32,059 nt of DNA from a virus (lineage: Duplodnaviria > Caudoviricetes): the IMG/VR virus record IMGVR_UViG_3300025543_000123, positions 1-32,059 of that record; one strand, written 5' to 3'. Both the position numbers and the translations under genes were made by a program. A model generated the notes under the pieces. It ran no database searches, had not been told where the DNA came from, and was given only the letters and a program-made list of their open reading frames with translations. Shown in pieces: positions 681 to 31,743 of this stretch. Within the stretch, counting starts at the first letter, position 1, and every line of letters starts with the position of its first letter.

Positions 681-1055
681 ATGAAGAAACCTACTCGTAA
701 ATCTTTAGTTACAAAACTAGATACTGTGTTTAGTCAATACATAAGACGCAAGGATGCGGTGAATGATATTGCTGAGTGTATTACTTGTGGTAAAAAAGAC
801 CATTATAAAAAATTGCAATGTGGTCATTTTATGAGTAGAAGACATTACTCTACTAGATGGGATGAGAATAATGTTGGTGTTCAATGTTATGGTTGCAACA
901 TCACTAATCAGGGTCAACAATATATTTTTAGTCAATATCTTGGTAATAACTTATCTGAAGAAATGTATTTAAAATCAAAACAAATAGTTAAATTTGCTGA
1001 TGTAGATTTAATTGATATGATTGATTATTATACTGAAAAGGTTTCTATGTTATAA
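681..1055 (+). CDS. NinG/Rap-family recombination endonuclease
   Basis: CITCG...QCGHFMSRRHYSTRWDENNVGVQCYGCN zinc/HNH-like pattern; ATG at 681 preferred to TTG at 675. Confidence 0.85.
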   Translation: MKKPTRKSLVTKLDTVFSQYIRRKDAVNDIAECITCGKKDHYKKLQCGHFMSRRHYSTRWDENNVGVQCYGCNITNQGQQYIFSQYLGNNLSEEMYLKSKQIVKFADVDLIDMIDYYTEKVSML

Positions 1056-1080
1056 AATTCTTTCTTTCCTGTTTTAATAT

Positions 1081-1167
1081 GAATAGCATTAGTAGCCACC
1101 GCTCGAAGGGTAATAAATAAGAAGCTACTTTAATATATTGTGGCCGAAATCGCAGTATAATCTATTC
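1081..1167 (+). ncRNA. Candidate structured RNA (three-way junction)
   Basis: GAATAG/CTATTC closing stem, AGTAGC/GCTACT stem, TATATTGTGG/TCGCAGTATA stem with G-U pairs; non-coding and GC-richer than its flanks. Confidence 0.35.
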
Positions 1168-1182
1168 GACTTTTGTTTGTTG

Positions 1183-1209
1183 AAAGCCCCTTTAATTAGG
1201 GGTTTTTTT
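1183..1209 (+). terminator. Intrinsic terminator
   Basis: GCCCCT-TTAATT-AGGGGT followed by a T tract. Confidence 0.85.
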
Positions 1210-1223
1210 ATGCTTAAAAAGTT

Positions 1224-1280
1224 TTAACAAAATTTTAACAAAATTTAAAAATCAATATGTTTAAATATGTTGTATATTTA
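1224..1280 (+). promoter_or_regulatory. Early promoter in front of the cassette array (TTAACA-N5-TTAACA box plus TATATTTA)
   Basis: Same architecture and spacing as 3453-3509, and the same AAACAAATAGAAATTATG leader. Confidence 0.65.
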
Positions 1281-1307
1281 CACCATAGAAATAAACAAAT
1301 AGAAATT

Positions 1308-1535
1308 ATGAAATCAGCAATGAATCAATTAGAAAAATGGATTTTAGATTACGAAAAAGTAAATGGATCTCCAACAATGTGCGAAATTAAATCACAATTA
1401 GAAATGTTTAAAGAAGTTGAAAAATAACAAATTTTTGATGCTTATGATGCTGGAAATGATTTTGATGGAGATTGGGAAGCAGAAGAAAATTATTATAAAG
1501 AAACATTTGGCGACAATATAGAAGCTGGAATATAA
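1308..1535 (+). pseudogene. Cassette A gene with in-frame TAA at 1425-1427; paralogue of 2003-2254
   Basis: MKSA...EK*QIFDAY...AEENYYKETF...EAGI aligns with MKTA...EKQQIMDAR...AEEYYKNTY...QAGI. Confidence 0.75.
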
Positions 1536-1575
1536 CGGATAGCCGCTATAATTTCAGCGTGGAATTATGTAAACT
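1533..1575. repeat. attC-like element 1 (degenerate or truncated)
   Basis: GAATATAAC-GGA left end identical to element 3; only a short ATAATTTC/GGAATTAT hairpin and no intact GTT. Confidence 0.5.
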
Positions 1576-1602
1576 GAACTGCATTTAAAAAACAAAAATA
1601 TT

Positions 1603-1836
1603 ATGAAAGTAAATGGAACAGAATATGGTTTTTCAATTTTTCCTAGCTATGGAAAAGTACAGGCTGAGATATACAAGGTATCTAGTTATAAATTAGATGT
1701 AGAAATGAATATGCATATAAGACTTTTAAATAAAGATTTCGGATCTATTTTTAGAAGTCCAAATGAAAACGATTATAAAAACGCTAGAAAATGGGTTGAT
1801 ATACAAATGAAGTCTATTTTAGACGCTAACGCTTAA
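1603..1836 (+). CDS. Cassette B hypothetical protein
   Basis: 77-aa ORF followed by CTTGCTGTTAAC left end of element 2. Confidence 0.75.
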   Translation: MKVNGTEYGFSIFPSYGKVQAEIYKVSSYKLDVEMNMHIRLLNKDFGSIFRSPNENDYKNARKWVDIQMKSILDANA

Positions 1837-1845
1837 TCTTGCTGT

Positions 1846-1974
1846 TAACGGAATCGCATAACAGAAGTTACGGATAAGTAAATCCTGAAACTCCAAATTA
1901 AAGACTAATAAAACCAAGTACAAACTAAACATTAAATTAATCAACCAAGCCGTAATTACTGTTATGCAGTGTTA
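1846..1974. repeat. attC-like element 2 (129 bp)
   Basis: TAAC-GGAATC-GCATAACAGAAGTTACGG...CCGTAATTACTGTTATGC-AGT-GTTA. Confidence 0.85.
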
Positions 1975-2002
1975 TATTCTTGGCTTTTTAAACGCAAACA
2001 TT

Positions 2003-2254
2003 ATGAAAACAGCAGGACAAGATTTTTTAGAATGGTATAACTATTACGTAAAAAAATACGGATGCTCTCCAAGTGATTACGATGTGAACTATTTTTGGAA
2101 CGGAGGTAATTTAGAAAAAGAAAAACAGCAAATTATGGACGCTAGAATAGACGGAGTTACTAAAAGTTTAGCATTGCCACCTAGTTATTCTATTAAAAAC
2201 GCAGAGGAGTACTACAAGAATACGTATATCGACTCCAACCAAGCTGGAATATAA
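2003..2254 (+). CDS. Cassette C hypothetical protein (alternative in-frame ATG at 1964 lies inside element 2)
   Basis: A-rich leader before ATG 2003; the stop TAA forms the TAAC of element 3. Confidence 0.8.
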   Translation: MKTAGQDFLEWYNYYVKKYGCSPSDYDVNYFWNGGNLEKEKQQIMDARIDGVTKSLALPPSYSIKNAEEYYKNTYIDSNQAGI

Positions 2255-2373
2255 CGGAAGGTTGCTTGGCATCTGTTGCCGATAACGTGAACGGAATTAT
2301 GAAAAATAAATTTAATATTACCAGCGGATTTTCAGCTGAAAAACTAAACGGCAATAGTGCCAAACAACTGTTA
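2252..2373. repeat. attC-like element 3 (122 bp)
   Basis: TAAC-GGAAG-GTTGCTTGGCATCTGTTGCCG...CGGCAATAGTGCCAAACAAC-T-GTTA. Confidence 0.85.
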
Positions 2374-2391
2374 ACAACTGTAATTTTATGA
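2299..2391 (+). CDS. Putative 30-aa leader peptide encoded within element 3
   Basis: MKNKFNITSGFSAEKLNGNSAKQLLTTVIL*; TGA overlaps ATG 2388 (ATGA). Confidence 0.5.
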   Translation: MKNKFNITSGFSAEKLNGNSAKQLLTTVIL

Positions 2392-2693
2392 AAACATCAT
2401 TTTGGATTTTATTTAGTCTATTCTTTATTATTTATAGCTCTAAACCAACATTAAGTATTAAACCATTTGCAATTAGTTTTGAATCTCCTTACACACCATT
2501 CGGTATAATTTTTCTAATACTTTCTCTCAGTTGCTTTCAGTTACAAACAAGAAAAGATACAAAAAAAGAATTAATAAAAACTTACTACGTTGAAGGAATA
2601 AATGACGGATTTGATAAGGCTGTTGAATCAATTAATTTAGAACTAAAAAAACAAGGTAAAGAATCAAAGATAATAATTGAAAGCAACAACTAG
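2388..2693 (+). CDS. Cassette D membrane protein
   Basis: Two hydrophobic segments (FWILFSLFFIIY; FGIIFLILSLSCF). Confidence 0.8.
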   Translation: MKTSFWILFSLFFIIYSSKPTLSIKPFAISFESPYTPFGIIFLILSLSCFQLQTRKDTKKELIKTYYVEGINDGFDKAVESINLELKKQGKESKIIIESNN

Positions 2694-2706
2694 CTATTAT
2701 AGTTGT

Positions 2707-2831
2707 TAACGGAAGGTATCCTTGCTTAGTGGCTGAATTAAAACTATTGCAAACAAATATAAACTAATCATTAAATGCAAAAATTATGAGTAAAGAAAAA
2801 ACAAATGAGCCATTATGCAAGACTGATGTTA
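2707..2831. repeat. attC-like element 4 (125 bp)
   Basis: TAAC-GGAAGGTATC-CTTGCTTAGTGGCT...AGCCATTATGCAAG-ACTGAT-GTTA. Confidence 0.8.
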
Positions 2832-2923
2832 ACAAATTGGTTTGCAAGCACTGTGGTAACAAATTATGCCCAAGTCAAACATTTAATGAGGAATGTTTCA
2901 AGTGTGGTAAAAAGCCTTTGTAG
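2786..2923 (+). CDS. Cassette E 45-aa zinc-ribbon protein starting inside element 4
   Basis: MSKEKTNEPLCKTDV|NKLVCKHCGNKLCPSQTFNEECFKCGKKPL*, two CxxC pairs. Confidence 0.7.
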   Translation: MSKEKTNEPLCKTDVNKLVCKHCGNKLCPSQTFNEECFKCGKKPL

Positions 2924-2935
2924 CAAACTGTTTGT

Positions 2936-3061
2936 TAACGTTCATTATTGTAGCAGTTAAGGAAAAGTACACCTTATGCTTCGATTAAAGACCAAATTTT
3001 AAAAGTACAAAACAATAATCAAATTAATAACCAAAGCCTTAATTGCTACAATATATTGTTG
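2936..3061. repeat. attC-like element 5 (126 bp)
   Basis: TAAC-GTTCAT-TATTGTAGCAGTTAAGG...CCTTAATTGCTACAATA-TATT-GTTG. Confidence 0.85.
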
Positions 3062-3088
3062 TAGGTAGGTTTTTTAACACCACTAATT

Positions 3089-3340
3089 ATGACACCAAAA
3101 GAAGAAGCACAAGATTTAATAGACAAAATGACGATGGAAATAGGTAAATTTAACGCTAAACAATGTGCGTTAATTGCTGTTAATGAAATAATAAAATACC
3201 ACGAATCATTATTTGATAAAGGATTTAAAGATATTCATATTGCACTTTCATCGCCAATAAAAACTTATCTAGATATTATGAATCCTTTATTAAAACACCT
3301 GATAGAAGTAAGAGAAGAATTAAAAAACCTACCTGCGTAA
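3089..3340 (+). CDS. Cassette F hypothetical phage protein
   Basis: 83-aa ORF MTPKEEA...AKQCALIAVNEII. Confidence 0.8.
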   Translation: MTPKEEAQDLIDKMTMEIGKFNAKQCALIAVNEIIKYHESLFDKGFKDIHIALSSPIKTYLDIMNPLLKHLIEVREELKNLPA

Positions 3341-3371
3341 CTTTGGCACCAAAGTTGAGCAAACTTACCTA

Positions 3372-3447
3372 CAACTGCTAATATCGTATAAGCGTAGTAA
3401 ATTTATAAATTATAAAAAGTCTTATTTATTACGTTTATACTAAGTTA
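3372..3447. repeat. attC-like element 6 (76 bp, terminal)
   Basis: CAAC-TGCTAATATC-GTATAAGCGTAGTAAAT...ATTTATTACGTTTATAC-TAA-GTTA. Confidence 0.7.
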
Positions 3448-3452
3448 TAAAA

Positions 3453-3509
3453 TTAACAAAATATTAACAGTTTTAAATAACCAATATTTAAAAAACATTT
3501 ATATATTTG
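3453..3509 (+). promoter_or_regulatory. Early promoter (TTAACA-N5-TTAACA box plus TATATTTG)
   Basis: TAnnTTTG at 3502-3509; direct repeat at 3453-3469. Confidence 0.75.
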
Positions 3510-3536
3510 TACTCAACAAACAAACAAATAGAAATT

Positions 3537-3626
3537 ATGAAAAACAATTTAAAAGATTTCGGAGCATCATTAGTATTTATGTTTATACTAATAACATTAT
3601 ACACAACTTTAATATCACTAATATAA
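3537..3626 (+). CDS. 29-aa hydrophobic peptide
   Basis: MKNNLKDFGASLVFMFILITLYTTLISLI*; first ORF after the promoter, TAATG-coupled to the next. Confidence 0.55.
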   Translation: MKNNLKDFGASLVFMFILITLYTTLISLI

Positions 3627-3805
3627 TGAAAGATTTACTAGATTTCCAAAGGTTTCAAATCCAAAGTTTGCAAAATAGAATATGTGAACTTGAAAATCAA
3701 AACAACATTCTTACTGAATACATTTTTGAAGCTTTAGACGAACAATGTACGCAAGAATATAAGACTATAATAAAAAAAGAAATTTACACCTTAAAACAAC
3801 CTTAA
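3626..3805 (+). CDS. Hypothetical protein (59 aa)
   Basis: MKDLLDFQRFQIQSLQ...; fills the gap, coupled to neighbours. Confidence 0.65.
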   Translation: MKDLLDFQRFQIQSLQNRICELENQNNILTEYIFEALDEQCTQEYKTIIKKEIYTLKQP

Positions 3806-3806
3806 A

Positions 3807-4088
3807 ATGAAAAAAGTTTTATTTTCAGCAATTATTATAACAACGTTATTTAGTTGCACAAATAATGAGTTAATACAAGAGGATTGTAGTTGTGATGAAA
3901 TAGTAAGTAAAAAAGTTTCTGCTGATTATGGTTCTAATCCAAGAGTAATAGTTTTATATCACACAAAAAATTATTGTTCAAATGTAGAAAAAGATTTTAA
4001 TTTAGTAATCGACGCAACTTACTCAGGAGTAATTAATGCGTTAAATGATTCTAGGATTCAAGAAATAGGTAAATGTTATAAAAAATAA
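3807..4088 (+). CDS. Putative lipoprotein
   Basis: MKKVLFSAIIITTLFS-C lipobox, additional Cys residues. Confidence 0.75.
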   Translation: MKKVLFSAIIITTLFSCTNNELIQEDCSCDEIVSKKVSADYGSNPRVIVLYHTKNYCSNVEKDFNLVIDATYSGVINALNDSRIQEIGKCYKK

Positions 4089-4093
4089 ATAAA

Positions 4094-4651
4094 ATGGAAA
4101 ATATGTTATTACAAGAAAAATTATCAATTATTCAAAAAGAATTTAAAGCAAACAAATCAAAATTTAACAGTTTTGGTAAATATAACTTTAGAAGTGCTGA
4201 GGATATATTAGAAGCCTTAAAGCCTTTTAATGAAAAGTATAAAGTTAGTTTTATTATTAAAGAAAAAATGATTAGTTTTGACCCTCCAATTATGTTATCT
4301 GAAGCTATTATTTACGATAATAATGGAGTAAATGAATTATCAGCATCAGCAGTAGTTGGTATCGACTTAGAACAGAAAGGAATGCAAATGCCACAAAAAT
4401 ATGGTTCTGCTAGTTCTTACGCTAAGAAATACGCATTAGGTAACTTACTATTAATTGATGACACACAAGACCCTGATGCAAGTAATAAGCACGACAAAAC
4501 AGAATCAAAAACAGATGATAAAAAATGGTTAAATAAAAATACACCTGAATTTAAAAAAGCAGTTGAATATTTAAAAAATGGTGGTAATATTGTAACCATT
4601 GAATCTAAATATAAAATGACTAAAGAAGTCAAAGAAGAGTTAACTAAATAA
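4094..4651 (+). CDS. ERF-family single-strand annealing recombinase
   Basis: FNSFGKYNFRSAEDILEALKP and GSASSYAKKYALGNLLLIDDTQDPD motifs. Confidence 0.9.
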   Translation: MENMLLQEKLSIIQKEFKANKSKFNSFGKYNFRSAEDILEALKPFNEKYKVSFIIKEKMISFDPPIMLSEAIIYDNNGVNELSASAVVGIDLEQKGMQMPQKYGSASSYAKKYALGNLLLIDDTQDPDASNKHDKTESKTDDKKWLNKNTPEFKKAVEYLKNGGNIVTIESKYKMTKEVKEELTK

Positions 4652-4712
4652 TAATAACTGAAAAGCTGACAACAGTAAAAAAAGGTAAGCAAAGTAAATA
4701 AAAATAAATATT

Positions 4713-6195: not shown

Positions 6196-6735
6196 ATGGA
6201 ATACAAATGGCTTGAAGAAGTAGCAAAGCATCATAAAGAATGGGTTAATACTATTCAAAAGATGGGAGAGTTTGACTATGCTGAGGACATAGTCCAAGAA
6301 TCTTATATCGCTTTAATGAAGTATGCTGATGCAACTAAATTGATAGATGTAAATGGTGATGTTCGCAAGGGGTATATGCTTTTTACTCTAAGGTCATTAT
6401 ATTATCAATTCTACAATAAAAAGAAAAAAATAAATAAAGTTTCTTTTGATGGATGTTGGGAATTATTTGACGATTCAAACATCGAAGAACAAGAAGCGTA
6501 TCATAGCATTTGTCTTTTAATTGATGAAGAAATAGAGAATTGGCATTGGTACGATAGAAAATTATTTAAACTTTATAGAGATACTGATTTTTCAATGCGT
6601 GATATTTCTAAAGAAACAAATATAAGTTTGATTTCTATATTTCATTCAATAAAGAATTACAAGTCTATTTTAAAAGATAAATTACAAAAAGATTATCAAG
6701 ATTACATTAATAACGATTATAATAACATTTATTAA
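6196..6735 (+). CDS. ECF/sigma-70-like factor
   Basis: Region-2-like AEDIVQESYI and region-4 HTH SMRDISKETNISLISIFHSI. Confidence 0.8.
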   Translation: MEYKWLEEVAKHHKEWVNTIQKMGEFDYAEDIVQESYIALMKYADATKLIDVNGDVRKGYMLFTLRSLYYQFYNKKKKINKVSFDGCWELFDDSNIEEQEAYHSICLLIDEEIENWHWYDRKLFKLYRDTDFSMRDISKETNISLISIFHSIKNYKSILKDKLQKDYQDYINNDYNNIY

Positions 6736-10501: not shown

Positions 10502-11263
10502 ATGAACACACAAGAAATTAAAAGAGGAGAATTTAATGCTTATTATTTAATAAGTGATTTGAAATTTGCAAAAGTAAACAGAGAATTATTTATAAAACAC
10601 GCTGAAAACTTTAAAAGTAAGTTAAATGATTTTGGTTGGATGTTGCCAGTAGTTATATCTAAAAGCGGAGATGTAATAGAAGGACATCATAGAATACAAT
10701 CAGCTATTCTAATGAATCAAAAAACAGTACCAGCTTACATTGTTGACTGGGTAGATACTAAAAACGATACAGAGCATTTAAAATATATTATAAATTTAAA
10801 CAACGGGAATAAGCCTTGGTTAAAGTTAGATTATTTAAGAGCATTTGCAAAAGAGAATGAACAATATAACACTGTTTATAATGCATATTTAAGTAACTCA
10901 AACAACTTATCTGTTGGTAATATAATAAACTGTTTCTTTGGTAAATCAGTAAATGATAAATTTAAAAAGGGGCTTAGTACAATTGACGATTTAGATTTCT
11001 CTTTATTGTTATTAAATAAGTTTTCTGAATTAGTAACTAAATACGGTGCAAATAAAATACAAGCCTACTGTGTTAGAGAATTAATAAACATAGCGTTTAT
11101 TAAAACAAAAAAAGATGTTAAAGCAATAAAACACTTACTAAGGTATTATGATGAAATGGCAAGAATAAATCACCCAGCATTAACATCTATATCAGAATTC
11201 AGACCAGCAATGGAAAAAGAATTAAATTACTATAAACTTACAACAAATGAAAGTAACAGATAA
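10502..11263 (+). CDS. ParB/Srx N-terminal domain protein
   Basis: FGWMLPVVI...VIEGHHRIQSA...VPAYIV. Confidence 0.75.
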   Translation: MNTQEIKRGEFNAYYLISDLKFAKVNRELFIKHAENFKSKLNDFGWMLPVVISKSGDVIEGHHRIQSAILMNQKTVPAYIVDWVDTKNDTEHLKYIINLNNGNKPWLKLDYLRAFAKENEQYNTVYNAYLSNSNNLSVGNIINCFFGKSVNDKFKKGLSTIDDLDFSLLLLNKFSELVTKYGANKIQAYCVRELINIAFIKTKKDVKAIKHLLRYYDEMARINHPALTSISEFRPAMEKELNYYKLTTNESNR

Positions 11264-11894
11264 AATAACAATAACAAACGAGGACAATATGCTTTTAATG
11301 GCTCGCTATCCTGATAAATATTTTGATTTAGCTATTGTAGACCCTCCTTATGGGATTGAAAGATTTAAAAAAGTAACTAAAACACCAAGTGCAAAAGATA
11401 AGCACGCAAAAAGTTTCCAAAGAATGGAAACAGTAAATAACAATAAACCAAGTATTGAATATTGGAATGAACTTTTTAGAGTTTCAAAAAATCAAATTGT
11501 ATTTGGAGCAAATAATTTTATTATGCCTACAAGTGAATATTTTTTAATTTGGGATAAAAAACAAGCTATGCCAAACTTTGCAAGATGTGAATACGCTTGG
11601 GTATCTATGGGATTAAAAACACCTGCTAAAATATGTGAACATTCTATTTATATTCATAATCAAACAGAAAAGATACACCCAACACAAAAGCCAATTTATT
11701 TATATAAGTATATTTTAGATAATTACGCAAAAGAAAATGATAAAATACTTGACACGCATTTAGGCTCTGGAAGTATCGCAATAGCCTGCCACGATTATAA
11801 ATATAATCTTACCGCTTGTGAATTGGATAAAGAGTATTTTGATAAAGCAATACAAAGAATAGTAAACCATACAAATCAAACTAAACTATTTTAA
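11247..11894 (+). CDS. DNA N6-A/N4-C methyltransferase (beta class)
   Basis: DPPY before HPTQKP and ILDTHLGSGS. Confidence 0.92.
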   Translation: MKVTDKITITNEDNMLLMARYPDKYFDLAIVDPPYGIERFKKVTKTPSAKDKHAKSFQRMETVNNNKPSIEYWNELFRVSKNQIVFGANNFIMPTSEYFLIWDKKQAMPNFARCEYAWVSMGLKTPAKICEHSIYIHNQTEKIHPTQKPIYLYKYILDNYAKENDKILDTHLGSGSIAIACHDYKYNLTACELDKEYFDKAIQRIVNHTNQTKLF

Positions 11895-13446: not shown

Positions 13447-14613
13447 ATGGAATTTGTATTAACTACTGCAATTAAAAAGTTAGCGAGTTTAAAGCAGCGT
13501 ATTAAAGTTGTAAGAGGTGGAACATCTGCTGGTAAAACATTTGGAATCTTACCTTTGTTAATTGATAAAGCTATCAAAGAACCATTGTTAGAGATAAGTG
13601 TTGTATCTGAATCTATCCCACATTTACGTAGAGGAGCATTAAAAGACTTTCTTAAAATAATGATGGCATTGAATAGATATAAGGATGACCAATTTAATAA
13701 GTCAACTTTAAAATATACATTTGCAAATGGTTCATACATCGAGTTCTTTAGTGCTGACCAACCTGATAAGTTAAGAGGTGCAAGAAGAAACATTCTTTAC
13801 GTTAATGAGTGCAATAATATAGAGTTTGATGCTTACTATCAAATGGCAATTAGAACAAGTGGGGATGTATGGCTAGATTATAACCCTGCTTCAACTTTTT
13901 GGGTAGATAAAGAAATATTAACTCAGCCAAATGTAGACTTCATTACATTGACATATTTAGATAATGAAGCATTAAGCGATACAATTGTAAAAGAGATTGA
14001 AACTGCAAAGATTAAAGCATTAACATCTACTTATTGGGCTAATTGGTGGCAAGTTTATGGATTAGGACAAACAGGTAGTTTAGAGGGTGTGTGTATAACT
14101 GATTGGCAAGAGATAGATTTGCCTAAAGATGCTAGAATCTTATGTGCGGGAATGGATTTTGGTTACACAAATGACCCAACTTCATTGGTTACTATGTACA
14201 AGTACAATGATGCTTATATCTTTGATGAAGTAATCTACAAAAAAGGGTTATTGAATAGTGAAATATCTAATCTATTAAAAGCAAATAGTATTGAAGATAT
14301 AATTTATGCAGATAGTGCTGAACCAAAATCAATAGCTGAGTTGAATAGTTACGGTCATAATGTATTACCTGTATCAAAAGGAAAAGATTCAATCATATAT
14401 GGTCTTAATTTAATCAATCAAAATAAGATATACGTAACATCAAGAAGTAAAAACTTAATTAATGAACTACGTAATTACATTTGGTTAACAGACAAATCAG
14501 GAGTTAAGATGAATAAACCTATTGACGCATACAATCACGCAATAGATGCAATGCGTTACGCTATAATGAGCCAACTAGAAAATCCAAACAAAGGAAACTA
14601 TTTTATTTACTAA
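13447..14613 (+). CDS. terL: Terminase large subunit (PBSX/SPP1-like)
   Basis: RGGTSAGKT Walker A, LYVNE, DYNP, GMDFGYTNDP, NHAIDAMRY. Confidence 0.95.
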   Translation: MEFVLTTAIKKLASLKQRIKVVRGGTSAGKTFGILPLLIDKAIKEPLLEISVVSESIPHLRRGALKDFLKIMMALNRYKDDQFNKSTLKYTFANGSYIEFFSADQPDKLRGARRNILYVNECNNIEFDAYYQMAIRTSGDVWLDYNPASTFWVDKEILTQPNVDFITLTYLDNEALSDTIVKEIETAKIKALTSTYWANWWQVYGLGQTGSLEGVCITDWQEIDLPKDARILCAGMDFGYTNDPTSLVTMYKYNDAYIFDEVIYKKGLLNSEISNLLKANSIEDIIYADSAEPKSIAELNSYGHNVLPVSKGKDSIIYGLNLINQNKIYVTSRSKNLINELRNYIWLTDKSGVKMNKPIDAYNHAIDAMRYAIMSQLENPNKGNYFIY

Positions 14614-14762
14614 TGACATACGGACAAATGATTGCTGAGATACAATGCTATATTCATCACGTTATGAATGTAGAGGTGATAATTAATTTACCAAGAAACA
14701 TAGGTGAGATAAAGAAAATGCAAGCTATGTTTAAAGTAGCAAACAAATACTTCAAATGTTAA
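14613..14762 (+). CDS. Hypothetical protein (49 aa)
   Basis: TAATG-coupled to terL. Confidence 0.55.
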   Translation: MTYGQMIAEIQCYIHHVMNVEVIINLPRNIGEIKKMQAMFKVANKYFKC

Positions 14763-31002: not shown

Positions 31003-31295
31003 TGACAAAGCTTGAATCAGAAAAAATAGACCGTTTAGAAAGTCATTTTAAAGTGTATAAATCTGATATGGTTGATGTAATAGCTAGCGTTAGAAATATA
31101 GAACAATCTTTAATAGGTTCACCTTTAAACGGTCATAAAGGAATAGTTCATTTATTAGATTCTATTGATGAAAGAGTAAAAGATTTAGAGAAAAAACAGA
31201 TATTAGCAGATGATAGACTTGAGAAGTTTAAGTGGTTTCAAAGGGGATTTATAGGAGTGATTTTTGGTTATTTAACGTGGTTAATAAGTAAGTGA
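31002..31295 (+). CDS. Coiled-coil protein with C-terminal TM (lysis-associated)
   Basis: Between holin and endolysin. Confidence 0.6.
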   Translation: MTKLESEKIDRLESHFKVYKSDMVDVIASVRNIEQSLIGSPLNGHKGIVHLLDSIDERVKDLEKKQILADDRLEKFKWFQRGFIGVIFGYLTWLISK

Positions 31296-31296
31296 T

Positions 31297-31743
31297 ATGA
31301 AGCTAGATGCAAATGGAATAAATTTTTTATCTGAACTTGAGGGATTAGAATTAAAAGCATATAAATGCTCCGCAGGTGTATGGACAATAGGATTAGGAAA
31401 TACATTTTATTCTGATGGTTCTAAAGTAAAACAAGGCGATGTTATAACTAAAAAAGATGCTTATGATTTATTTCATCTAATAGCGATTAAATTTGAAAAA
31501 GCTATTAATGAAAATGTAAAAGTTAATTTAAATCAAAATCAATTTAACTCTTTATTTTGCTTTGTTTATAATATAGGTATTACTGGGTTTAAAAATAGTA
31601 CACTTTTAAGATATGTAAATCTAAATCCTAATGATGGAAATATAGCTAAACAATTCTTGAGATGGAATAAGATAGCAGGAAAAGAATCTAAAGGATTGAC
31701 AAATAGAAGAATCAAAGAATCAGCTTTATACTTTAAAAAATGA
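31297..31743 (+). CDS. Endolysin, GH24 lysozyme
   Basis: EGLELKAYKCSAGVWTIGLG, QNQFNSL, GLTNRRIKE. Confidence 0.95.
   Translation: MKLDANGINFLSELEGLELKAYKCSAGVWTIGLGNTFYSDGSKVKQGDVITKKDAYDLFHLIAIKFEKAINENVKVNLNQNQFNSLFCFVYNIGITGFKNSTLLRYVNLNPNDGNIAKQFLRWNKIAGKESKGLTNRRIKESALYFKK

Follow-up and report, generated by a model that had tools for sequence, protein, structure and literature searches.

The locus raises the question of how a series of small genes, each next to a hairpin, came to stand in a phage genome, and of where one unit of the series ends and the next begins. The window, that is, the whole stretch analysed, is a virus record of 32,059 bp, which is 98% complete according to CheckV and harbours the gene set of a tailed phage, including NinG, Erf, terminase, portal, and endolysin. 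The GC content of the record is 22-35%, and Flavobacterium phages are its closest annotated DNA matches. The array is found in the early region, in the NinG-Erf interval, which measures 3,039 bp versus a median of 450 bp in relatives. Hairpins between NinG and Erf were found in none of the 72 Erf relatives spanning that interval, and the array is therefore regarded as an insertion. No match to PF00589, the tyrosine-recombinase family, was detected in the record, and none of the 55 ORFs scanned gave one. The search of positions 1000-4000 against Rfam gave no match at E <= 1. Among the cassette proteins, Pfam and PHROGs revealed only phrog_21441 and two weak matches below the cut-off. Close cassette homologues sought in viral contigs were mostly the phage itself or family members outside cassettes; one cassette homologue was found.

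We consider it probable that the window carries a recombinase-less array of a Bacteroidota phage, comprising four intact cassettes, in which the hairpin precedes the gene, and one degenerate cassette, all in front of a fixed dock (Table 1). The cassettes likely entered as single-stranded circles in folded form, with the cut at AA|C of the + strand, through the action of a short integron-like tyrosine recombinase supplied by the host or by another phage. Sequence comparison shows where the units end, the dock and its empty state, an outer stem of 15 bp containing a fixed G·T pair, and the presence of the same sites beside such a recombinase in phages and Flavobacterium chromosomes.

Table 1. 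Features of the cassette array in the window
Feature	Position	Strand	Description
Intrinsic-terminator-like stem	1182..1215	+	3' of NinG-like gene; left edge of the inserted region
Promoter/RBS-like block P1	1224..1313	+	76% identical to 3453-3542; relatives such as L017 have a single copy
Broken ORF	1308..1536	+	In-frame TAA at codon 40; paralogue of ORF 2003-2254, with common 3' end
Degenerate site remnant A	1534..1571	+	38 bp; homologue of the next gene in L114 has a full hairpin
Degenerate unit	1536..1848	+	Remnant A + ORF 1603-1836
attC-like hairpin B	1847..1973	+	AAC..GTT, 127 nt
Cassette 1	1849..2254	+	406 bp; hairpin B + ORF 2003-2254 (83 aa, no family)
attC-like hairpin C	2253..2372	+	120 nt
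Cassette 2	2255..2709	+	455 bp; hairpin C + ORF 2388-2693 (101 aa, no family)
attC-like hairpin D	2708..2830	+	123 nt; contains the start codon of the next ORF
Cassette 3	2710..2938	+	229 bp; hairpin D + ORF 2786-2923 (45 aa, two CxxC motifs)
attC-like hairpin E	2937..3060	+	124 nt
Cassette 4	2939..3374	+	436 bp; hairpin E + ORF 3089-3340 (83 aa, phrog_21441, unknown function)
Terminal dock F (attI-like role)	3373..3446	+	Insertion point AA|C at 3374|3375
Promoter/RBS-like block P2	3453..3542	+	Backbone copy, common to relatives

The ORF of the degenerate unit encodes 77 aa and shares 69% identity with a gene from a cassette of L114, and hairpin C has a 92% identical copy in Flavobacterium phage hattifnatt9-1, flanked by other genes. 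The two copies of the promoter-like block bracket the array, and the second contains the motif TAnnTTTG, which we take to be the Bacteroidota -7 element. Block P1 likely drives the array. The scan for sigma-70 promoters gave 14 versus 15.6, which is the chance level. In a relative (L014 at about 6300-6560, read on the - strand, and L015 at 145-165), a collapsed site of 11 nt is present between AAC and GTT. This collapsed site indicates that sites can decay via internal deletion, as appears to have happened at remnant A.

The first-pass annotation had reported that the sequence after the GTT of an element pairs with the sequence before the AAC of the next element and not of its own. All eight strings were found in the places it gave, with GTT triplets starting at 1971, 2370, 2828, and 3058, and AAC ends finishing at 2255, 2710, 2939, and 3375; an additional copy of the C-type end is present at 1522-1536. 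Over the 13 nt past the triplets, the four pairs of ends form 8, 11, 9, and 11 Watson-Crick pairs, the counts of 8 and 9 requiring a 1-nt bulge, compared with 3-7 for ends of the same element and with a mean of 3.8 and a maximum of 10 for 6,912 GTT..AAC pairs elsewhere in the phage. Their duplex energies are -9.4, -11.9, -13.3, and -13.3 kcal/mol versus -4.05 +/- 1.28 in the null, where 11, 1, 0, and 0 out of 5,000 pairs, respectively, were as strong. The assignment to the next element ranks best among 120 permutations.

The outer stem of about 15 bp predicted upon circularising is general across 217 related units. These are consecutive units from related arrays to which no complementarity filter was applied, and pairing amounts to 71-99% for 12 nt past GTT, falling to about 40% at position 13; the 15-bp stem is therefore a property of the system. 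Pairing of the ends of the same element in these 217 units is at background level, with the exception of positions 1 and 8. A Watson-Crick pair at position 8 of the outer stem is present in 3% of these 217 units, which come from phages and metagenomes; G stands there in 78%, and the partner is T in 99%. All four units of the window have, by eye, this T on the AAC side, and the G lies opposite directly in two units and via a 1-nt bulge in the other two.

In the first-pass annotation each unit was a gene plus the hairpin following it, joined at G|TT of the + strand, as in a classical integron read forwards. The offset pairing fits this model, and its circles fold 3.9-9.1 kcal/mol better than the integrated hairpin. 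However, the offset is symmetric and a cut at AA|C leaves the same pattern, so the pairing of ends cannot place the crossover; it merely assigns what lies between a GTT and the next AAC to a single unit, and leaves the partner hairpin undefined. Circularising the units in silico under either model (AA|C or G|TT) results in a gain of 2.4-10.1 kcal/mol over the integrated form, so that circles do fold better, and the G|TT crossover is not singled out. The comparison decides for a boundary at AA|C on the + strand because of the contexts of dock F, the flank test, the relatives of cassette 4, the starts of the ORFs, and the hairpin-free interval between NinG and Erf. The first-pass view of integron-like cassettes, whose circles would re-form a hairpin with a stem about 15 bp long, was thus retained, and the + strand G|TT crossover was given up together with the units 1972-2370, 2371-2828, 2829-3058, and 3059-3444, in whose place the comparison gives cassettes 1 to 4 of Table 1. 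The crossover would still lie at G|TT, although on the - strand, and the array would be the integron layout read backwards.

The flank test was symmetric and compared pairs with an identity of 85% or more among 561 hairpins from 311 loci and the window. To collect the loci, patterns from both hairpin ends were used, and six loci of the same phage were removed; being chosen by hairpin patterns, the loci are not independent samples. Only the downstream flank is shared in 35 hairpin pairs, which correspond to 28 distinct context pairs and 12 families, one of them a coding false positive. Only the upstream flank is shared in a single pair, within locus L185, where the partners agree with the first-pass model. 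Among the other pairs, 85 share both flanks, 887 share neither, and 91 were not scorable. By this comparison the hairpin travels with the gene after it (11 families versus one). The 887 pairs without a shared flank mean that hairpins also change partners by a route outside the proposed model.

The neighbours of cassette 4 bear on the same point. The start and the end of cassette 4, together with the right arm of its hairpin, recur in L114, L187, and L264, and the match with the window stops at 3374-3376, where other sites follow and never F, as opposed to the first-pass unit. Excision at G|TT would also separate ORF 2786-2923 from its start codon, which is located within hairpin D. An ORF start within the upstream hairpin is present in 99 of 248 units, compared with three of 248 in which the ORF runs past the AAC. 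Contigs from four runs (16 listed) contained neither circles nor exact excision joints; the joints seen in them have inserts in between and were not counted as proof.

Several observations concern the content of the units. L114:323-631, L187:4491-4853, and L264:1-409 represent one cassette frame, with common start and end, carrying different or strongly diverged ORFs, and L280 possesses three units with near-identical ends and different genes. Members of the families to which cassette genes 1 and 4 belong are also present, hairpin-free, in L005, L008-L012, L051, L056, L064, L110, and L112. There are hints here of gene swapping into reusable cassette frames. In L262, L282, L286, L298, and L301 the 4-nt bulge after AACG differs between cassettes otherwise 91-100% identical, and this bulge changes faster than the rest of the hairpin.

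Dock F is constant. It was found directly after AAC in relatives with differing cassettes, at the locus of the window in L014/L015 and L243, and also at a second locus between Erf and ssb, which is occupied by a dock in six of 77 Erf relatives. Fourteen distinct contexts upstream of F were detected (15 rows, two of them one base apart). Two contexts, L102 and L103, are cassette-free, with the dock directly after the Erf gene, so that filled and empty states both exist. A constant dock behind 14 contexts, empty docks, and insertions bounded by AAC also speak against the gene-then-hairpin unit of the first-pass annotation, which, with the flank test, we regard as very improbable. F itself can fold as a hairpin, and it may act as a folded site rather than as a double-stranded attI.

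The dock of the window has six extra bases, 3376-3381, between AAC and the conserved start of the dock, which are not present in the close relatives L015 and L243; a unit may have been inserted at a secondary AAC immediately before the dock. In one contig of run X8, positions 1547 and 3382 are linked through an insert. At the Erf-ssb junction of the window (4651-4680) the dock is absent, and in L102 and L103 one stands there with an AAC triplet on either side. Possibly the dock is itself a unit lacking a gene that was inserted at a secondary site.

The stems carry a strand signature. On the + strand, which bears AACG, G·T pairs outnumber A·C pairs by 221 to 10 in outer stems and by 435 to 158 in inner stems. 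In phage arrays the AACG strand is also the coding strand, and folding as RNA therefore had to be excluded. According to this alternative the pairings form in RNA, where they would serve as RNase III sites or stabilise early mRNA, and homologous recombination between similar hairpins, many of which are 85-100% alike and swap partners, moves the units. In 250 of 260 phage and metagenome units the AACG strand carries the gene, and five of the six exceptions examined were strand mis-calls, so the distinction between RNA and DNA was made on chromosomes. There the gene lies opposite the AACG strand in 58 of 65 well-paired units, yet G·T stays on the AACG strand: among 74 chromosomal units, 82% have G·T at position 8 when read on that strand, and 0% have A·C. 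The wobble mark thus follows the DNA strand and not the transcript, which favours folded single-stranded DNA over RNA structure. Boundaries falling on one triplet, the existence of empty docks, and the lack of Rfam matches in the array region also disagree with the RNA reading, to which we give hardly any credence.

Phage genes face the dock. Chromosomal arrays have the orientation of classical integrons, of which phage arrays are the reverse. Seven of the 65 chromosomal units have the phage orientation (L399, L403, Flavobacterium chromosomes), and the ends of one of them resemble cassettes in phage 11b and L074, which suggests a flow of cassettes from phage to host.

A motif-filter screen of 238 loci found a recombinase gene beside the array in three viral or metagenome loci, L154, L186, and L267, where it starts 55-76 bp after the terminal AAC. 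The proteins of L154 and L267 match best the NCBIfam models of XerA/XerC/XerD type, below every cut-off, and their scores on the integron model TIGR02249 are 136 and 158 bits versus a cut-off of 265, with the match split. Compared with VchIntIA (2A3V), 36 residues span what takes 84, and the enzyme is about 48 aa shorter between two matched blocks. We take this region of VchIntIA to be the one containing I2. XerC, XerD, and XerA are also the best PDB matches of the neighbouring enzyme, and XerC/D are able to act on folded single strands (PMC5027507). Unlike them, the enzyme adjoins cassette arrays and a dock. From this neighbourhood we infer that the short recombinase moves the cassettes.

Forty stretches around recombinase homologue genes were taken from Flavobacterium genomes. 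At least two hairpins of the same geometry were found in 15 of 18 downstream stretches, and the chromosomal array is usually downstream of the recombinase gene; it lies upstream, as in phages, in one of ten checked (L380). A degenerate hairpin pattern for searching whole genomes was discarded, as 22 of its 25 matches were chance matches. IntegronFinder surveys report very few integrons in Bacteroidetes, according to the sections of Neron et al. 2022 (PMC9024848) that deal with this group, whereas homologues of the recombinase are present in 57 of 101 Flavobacterium genomes, mostly adjoined to arrays where examined.

Similar to integrons, the related arrays contain tandem one-gene cassettes, hairpins with AAC/GTT cores, and a terminal insertion site for a tyrosine recombinase, and the tandem alternation of ORFs with imperfect hairpins, each enclosed by AAC and GTT, is that of attC sites. 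The passages on attC in Nivina 2016 (PMC5027507) describe a core RYYYAAC/GTTRRRY with the cut within 5'-AAC-3' of the folded strand, an unpaired central spacer of five to six bases per arm, and two or three extrahelical bases near L'', usually G and T. The cut here would likewise lie in the AAC of one folding strand, at AA|C of the G·T-biased + strand. Unlike attC, the sites possess an outer arm of 15 bp in which one G·T pair is fixed. The 5' spacer exceeds the 3' spacer by 4 nt in 189 and by 3 nt in 44 of 260 hairpins, an extrahelical G is not conserved, and a bulge in the first stem is absent from 143 of 260 hairpins, the commonest bulge being T on the other arm.

These differences weigh on the explanation that the array is an ordinary CALIN of classical attC cassettes with inverted genes, moved by a canonical IntI. 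The AAC/GTT core, the 120-127 nt hairpins, and the terminal site agree with it, and 17 phage CALINs are reported in the relevant parts of Qi et al. 2023 (PMC9892861), where IntI1 recombined five of six phage sites tested. The spacer asymmetry, the bulge-free first stems, and the neighbouring recombinases, which lack the IntI-specific insertion and score far from the integron model, do not agree with it, and we hold an ordinary CALIN to be quite unlikely. The array fits the description of a CALIN in having four intact sites and no integrase, though its sites are non-canonical. Unlike a complete integron, it has no intI gene beside it in the 98%-complete record, and its genes are not oriented away from the insertion site, as they are in complete integrons, where Pc serves as their promoter, and in the chromosomal arrays (58 of 65). 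The array works like an integron, yet it differs in several of the features by which integrons are recognised.

The closest published case is the CALIN of Polaribacter phage P12002L (L343), which is, as in the window, an integrase-less attC cluster in a phage (PMC9892861). P12002L_attC1 is a hairpin of the window type, and its AACG strand, labelled bottom strand in that paper, is the coding strand. It is the one site whose recombination by IntI1 was not verified there. The attC2 site, which we assign as the terminal site of that array, was recombined by IntI1, and IntI1 is therefore not blind to these arrays. The relevant parts of PMC9892861 treat the sites as ordinary attC and ascribe the 'divergent directions' to mosaicism; the dock, outer stem, reversed genes, and short recombinase are not described in them. 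Phage attC clusters, including one site of this type, were thus already known, as these parts indicate. The literature search, which left most subscription papers outside, found no published description of this integron-like variant and no positive recombination assay for a site of this type. Outside the CALIN figured by Qi et al., P12002L possesses further hairpins at 14503-14624, 31121-31313, 32801-32924, and 38880-40948, some of them in the chromosomal orientation.

The same units and the same boundary could also be moved double-stranded, by a Xer-like exchange of two strands at extruded cruciforms or short sites. The recombinase is best on XerA/XerC/XerD-type models and lacks I2, which Escudero et al. 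2020 (PMC7790495), in the sections on this element, hold to enable single-strand recombination by integron integrases. Nonetheless, G·T exceeds A·C on one strand in both outer and inner stems, and the unit ends pair only if they are single-stranded or extruded. We consider the double-stranded route unlikely.

In the preferred reading, with folded single-stranded circles, the + strand of the circle would fold so that its two ends form the outer 15-bp arm and the hairpin forms the inner arm. A bulge of 3-4 nt would adjoin the AAC in the folded circle. An outer arm of this length would accommodate the binding arm of Xer-type recombinases, which measures about 11 bp. The recombinase would cut at AA|C and join the circle to the dock, so that the newest cassette adjoins the dock. 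The bulge and the G·T pair may mark the strand to be cut, replacing the extrahelical bases read by IntI. In the integrated form the long arm would be mismatched, and insertion would be favoured over excision. With the phage gene on the cut strand, the early promoter P1 at the far end would read the array towards the dock.

A wider interpretation, which is tentative and to which we would give somewhat less than an even chance, is that Bacteroidota and their phages harbour a second lineage of integrons. Its recombinase would lack I2 and act on folded single-stranded cassettes, reading the long wobble-marked arm and the bulge instead, and phages would build reversed cassettes of their own from ordinary early genes in reusable frames. 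If true, cassette building in phages would expose how new cassettes are made, and the reversed phage cassettes and reused frames would give a handle on cassette genesis. Strand-marked sites beside an enzyme without I2 would represent an independent solution or a stage preceding I2. The window is a modest example: its four tiny genes have no assigned function, and it lacks the enzyme.

DNA methyltransferase cassettes are frequent in related arrays, being annotated in L001 and L343 and recognised by eye in L088 and L154. The methyltransferase of the window (11247-11894) lies outside any array. Positions 1-44 of the window form a perfect, loop-less inverted repeat of 22 bp at the start of the contig, which is either an assembly artefact or a genome end.
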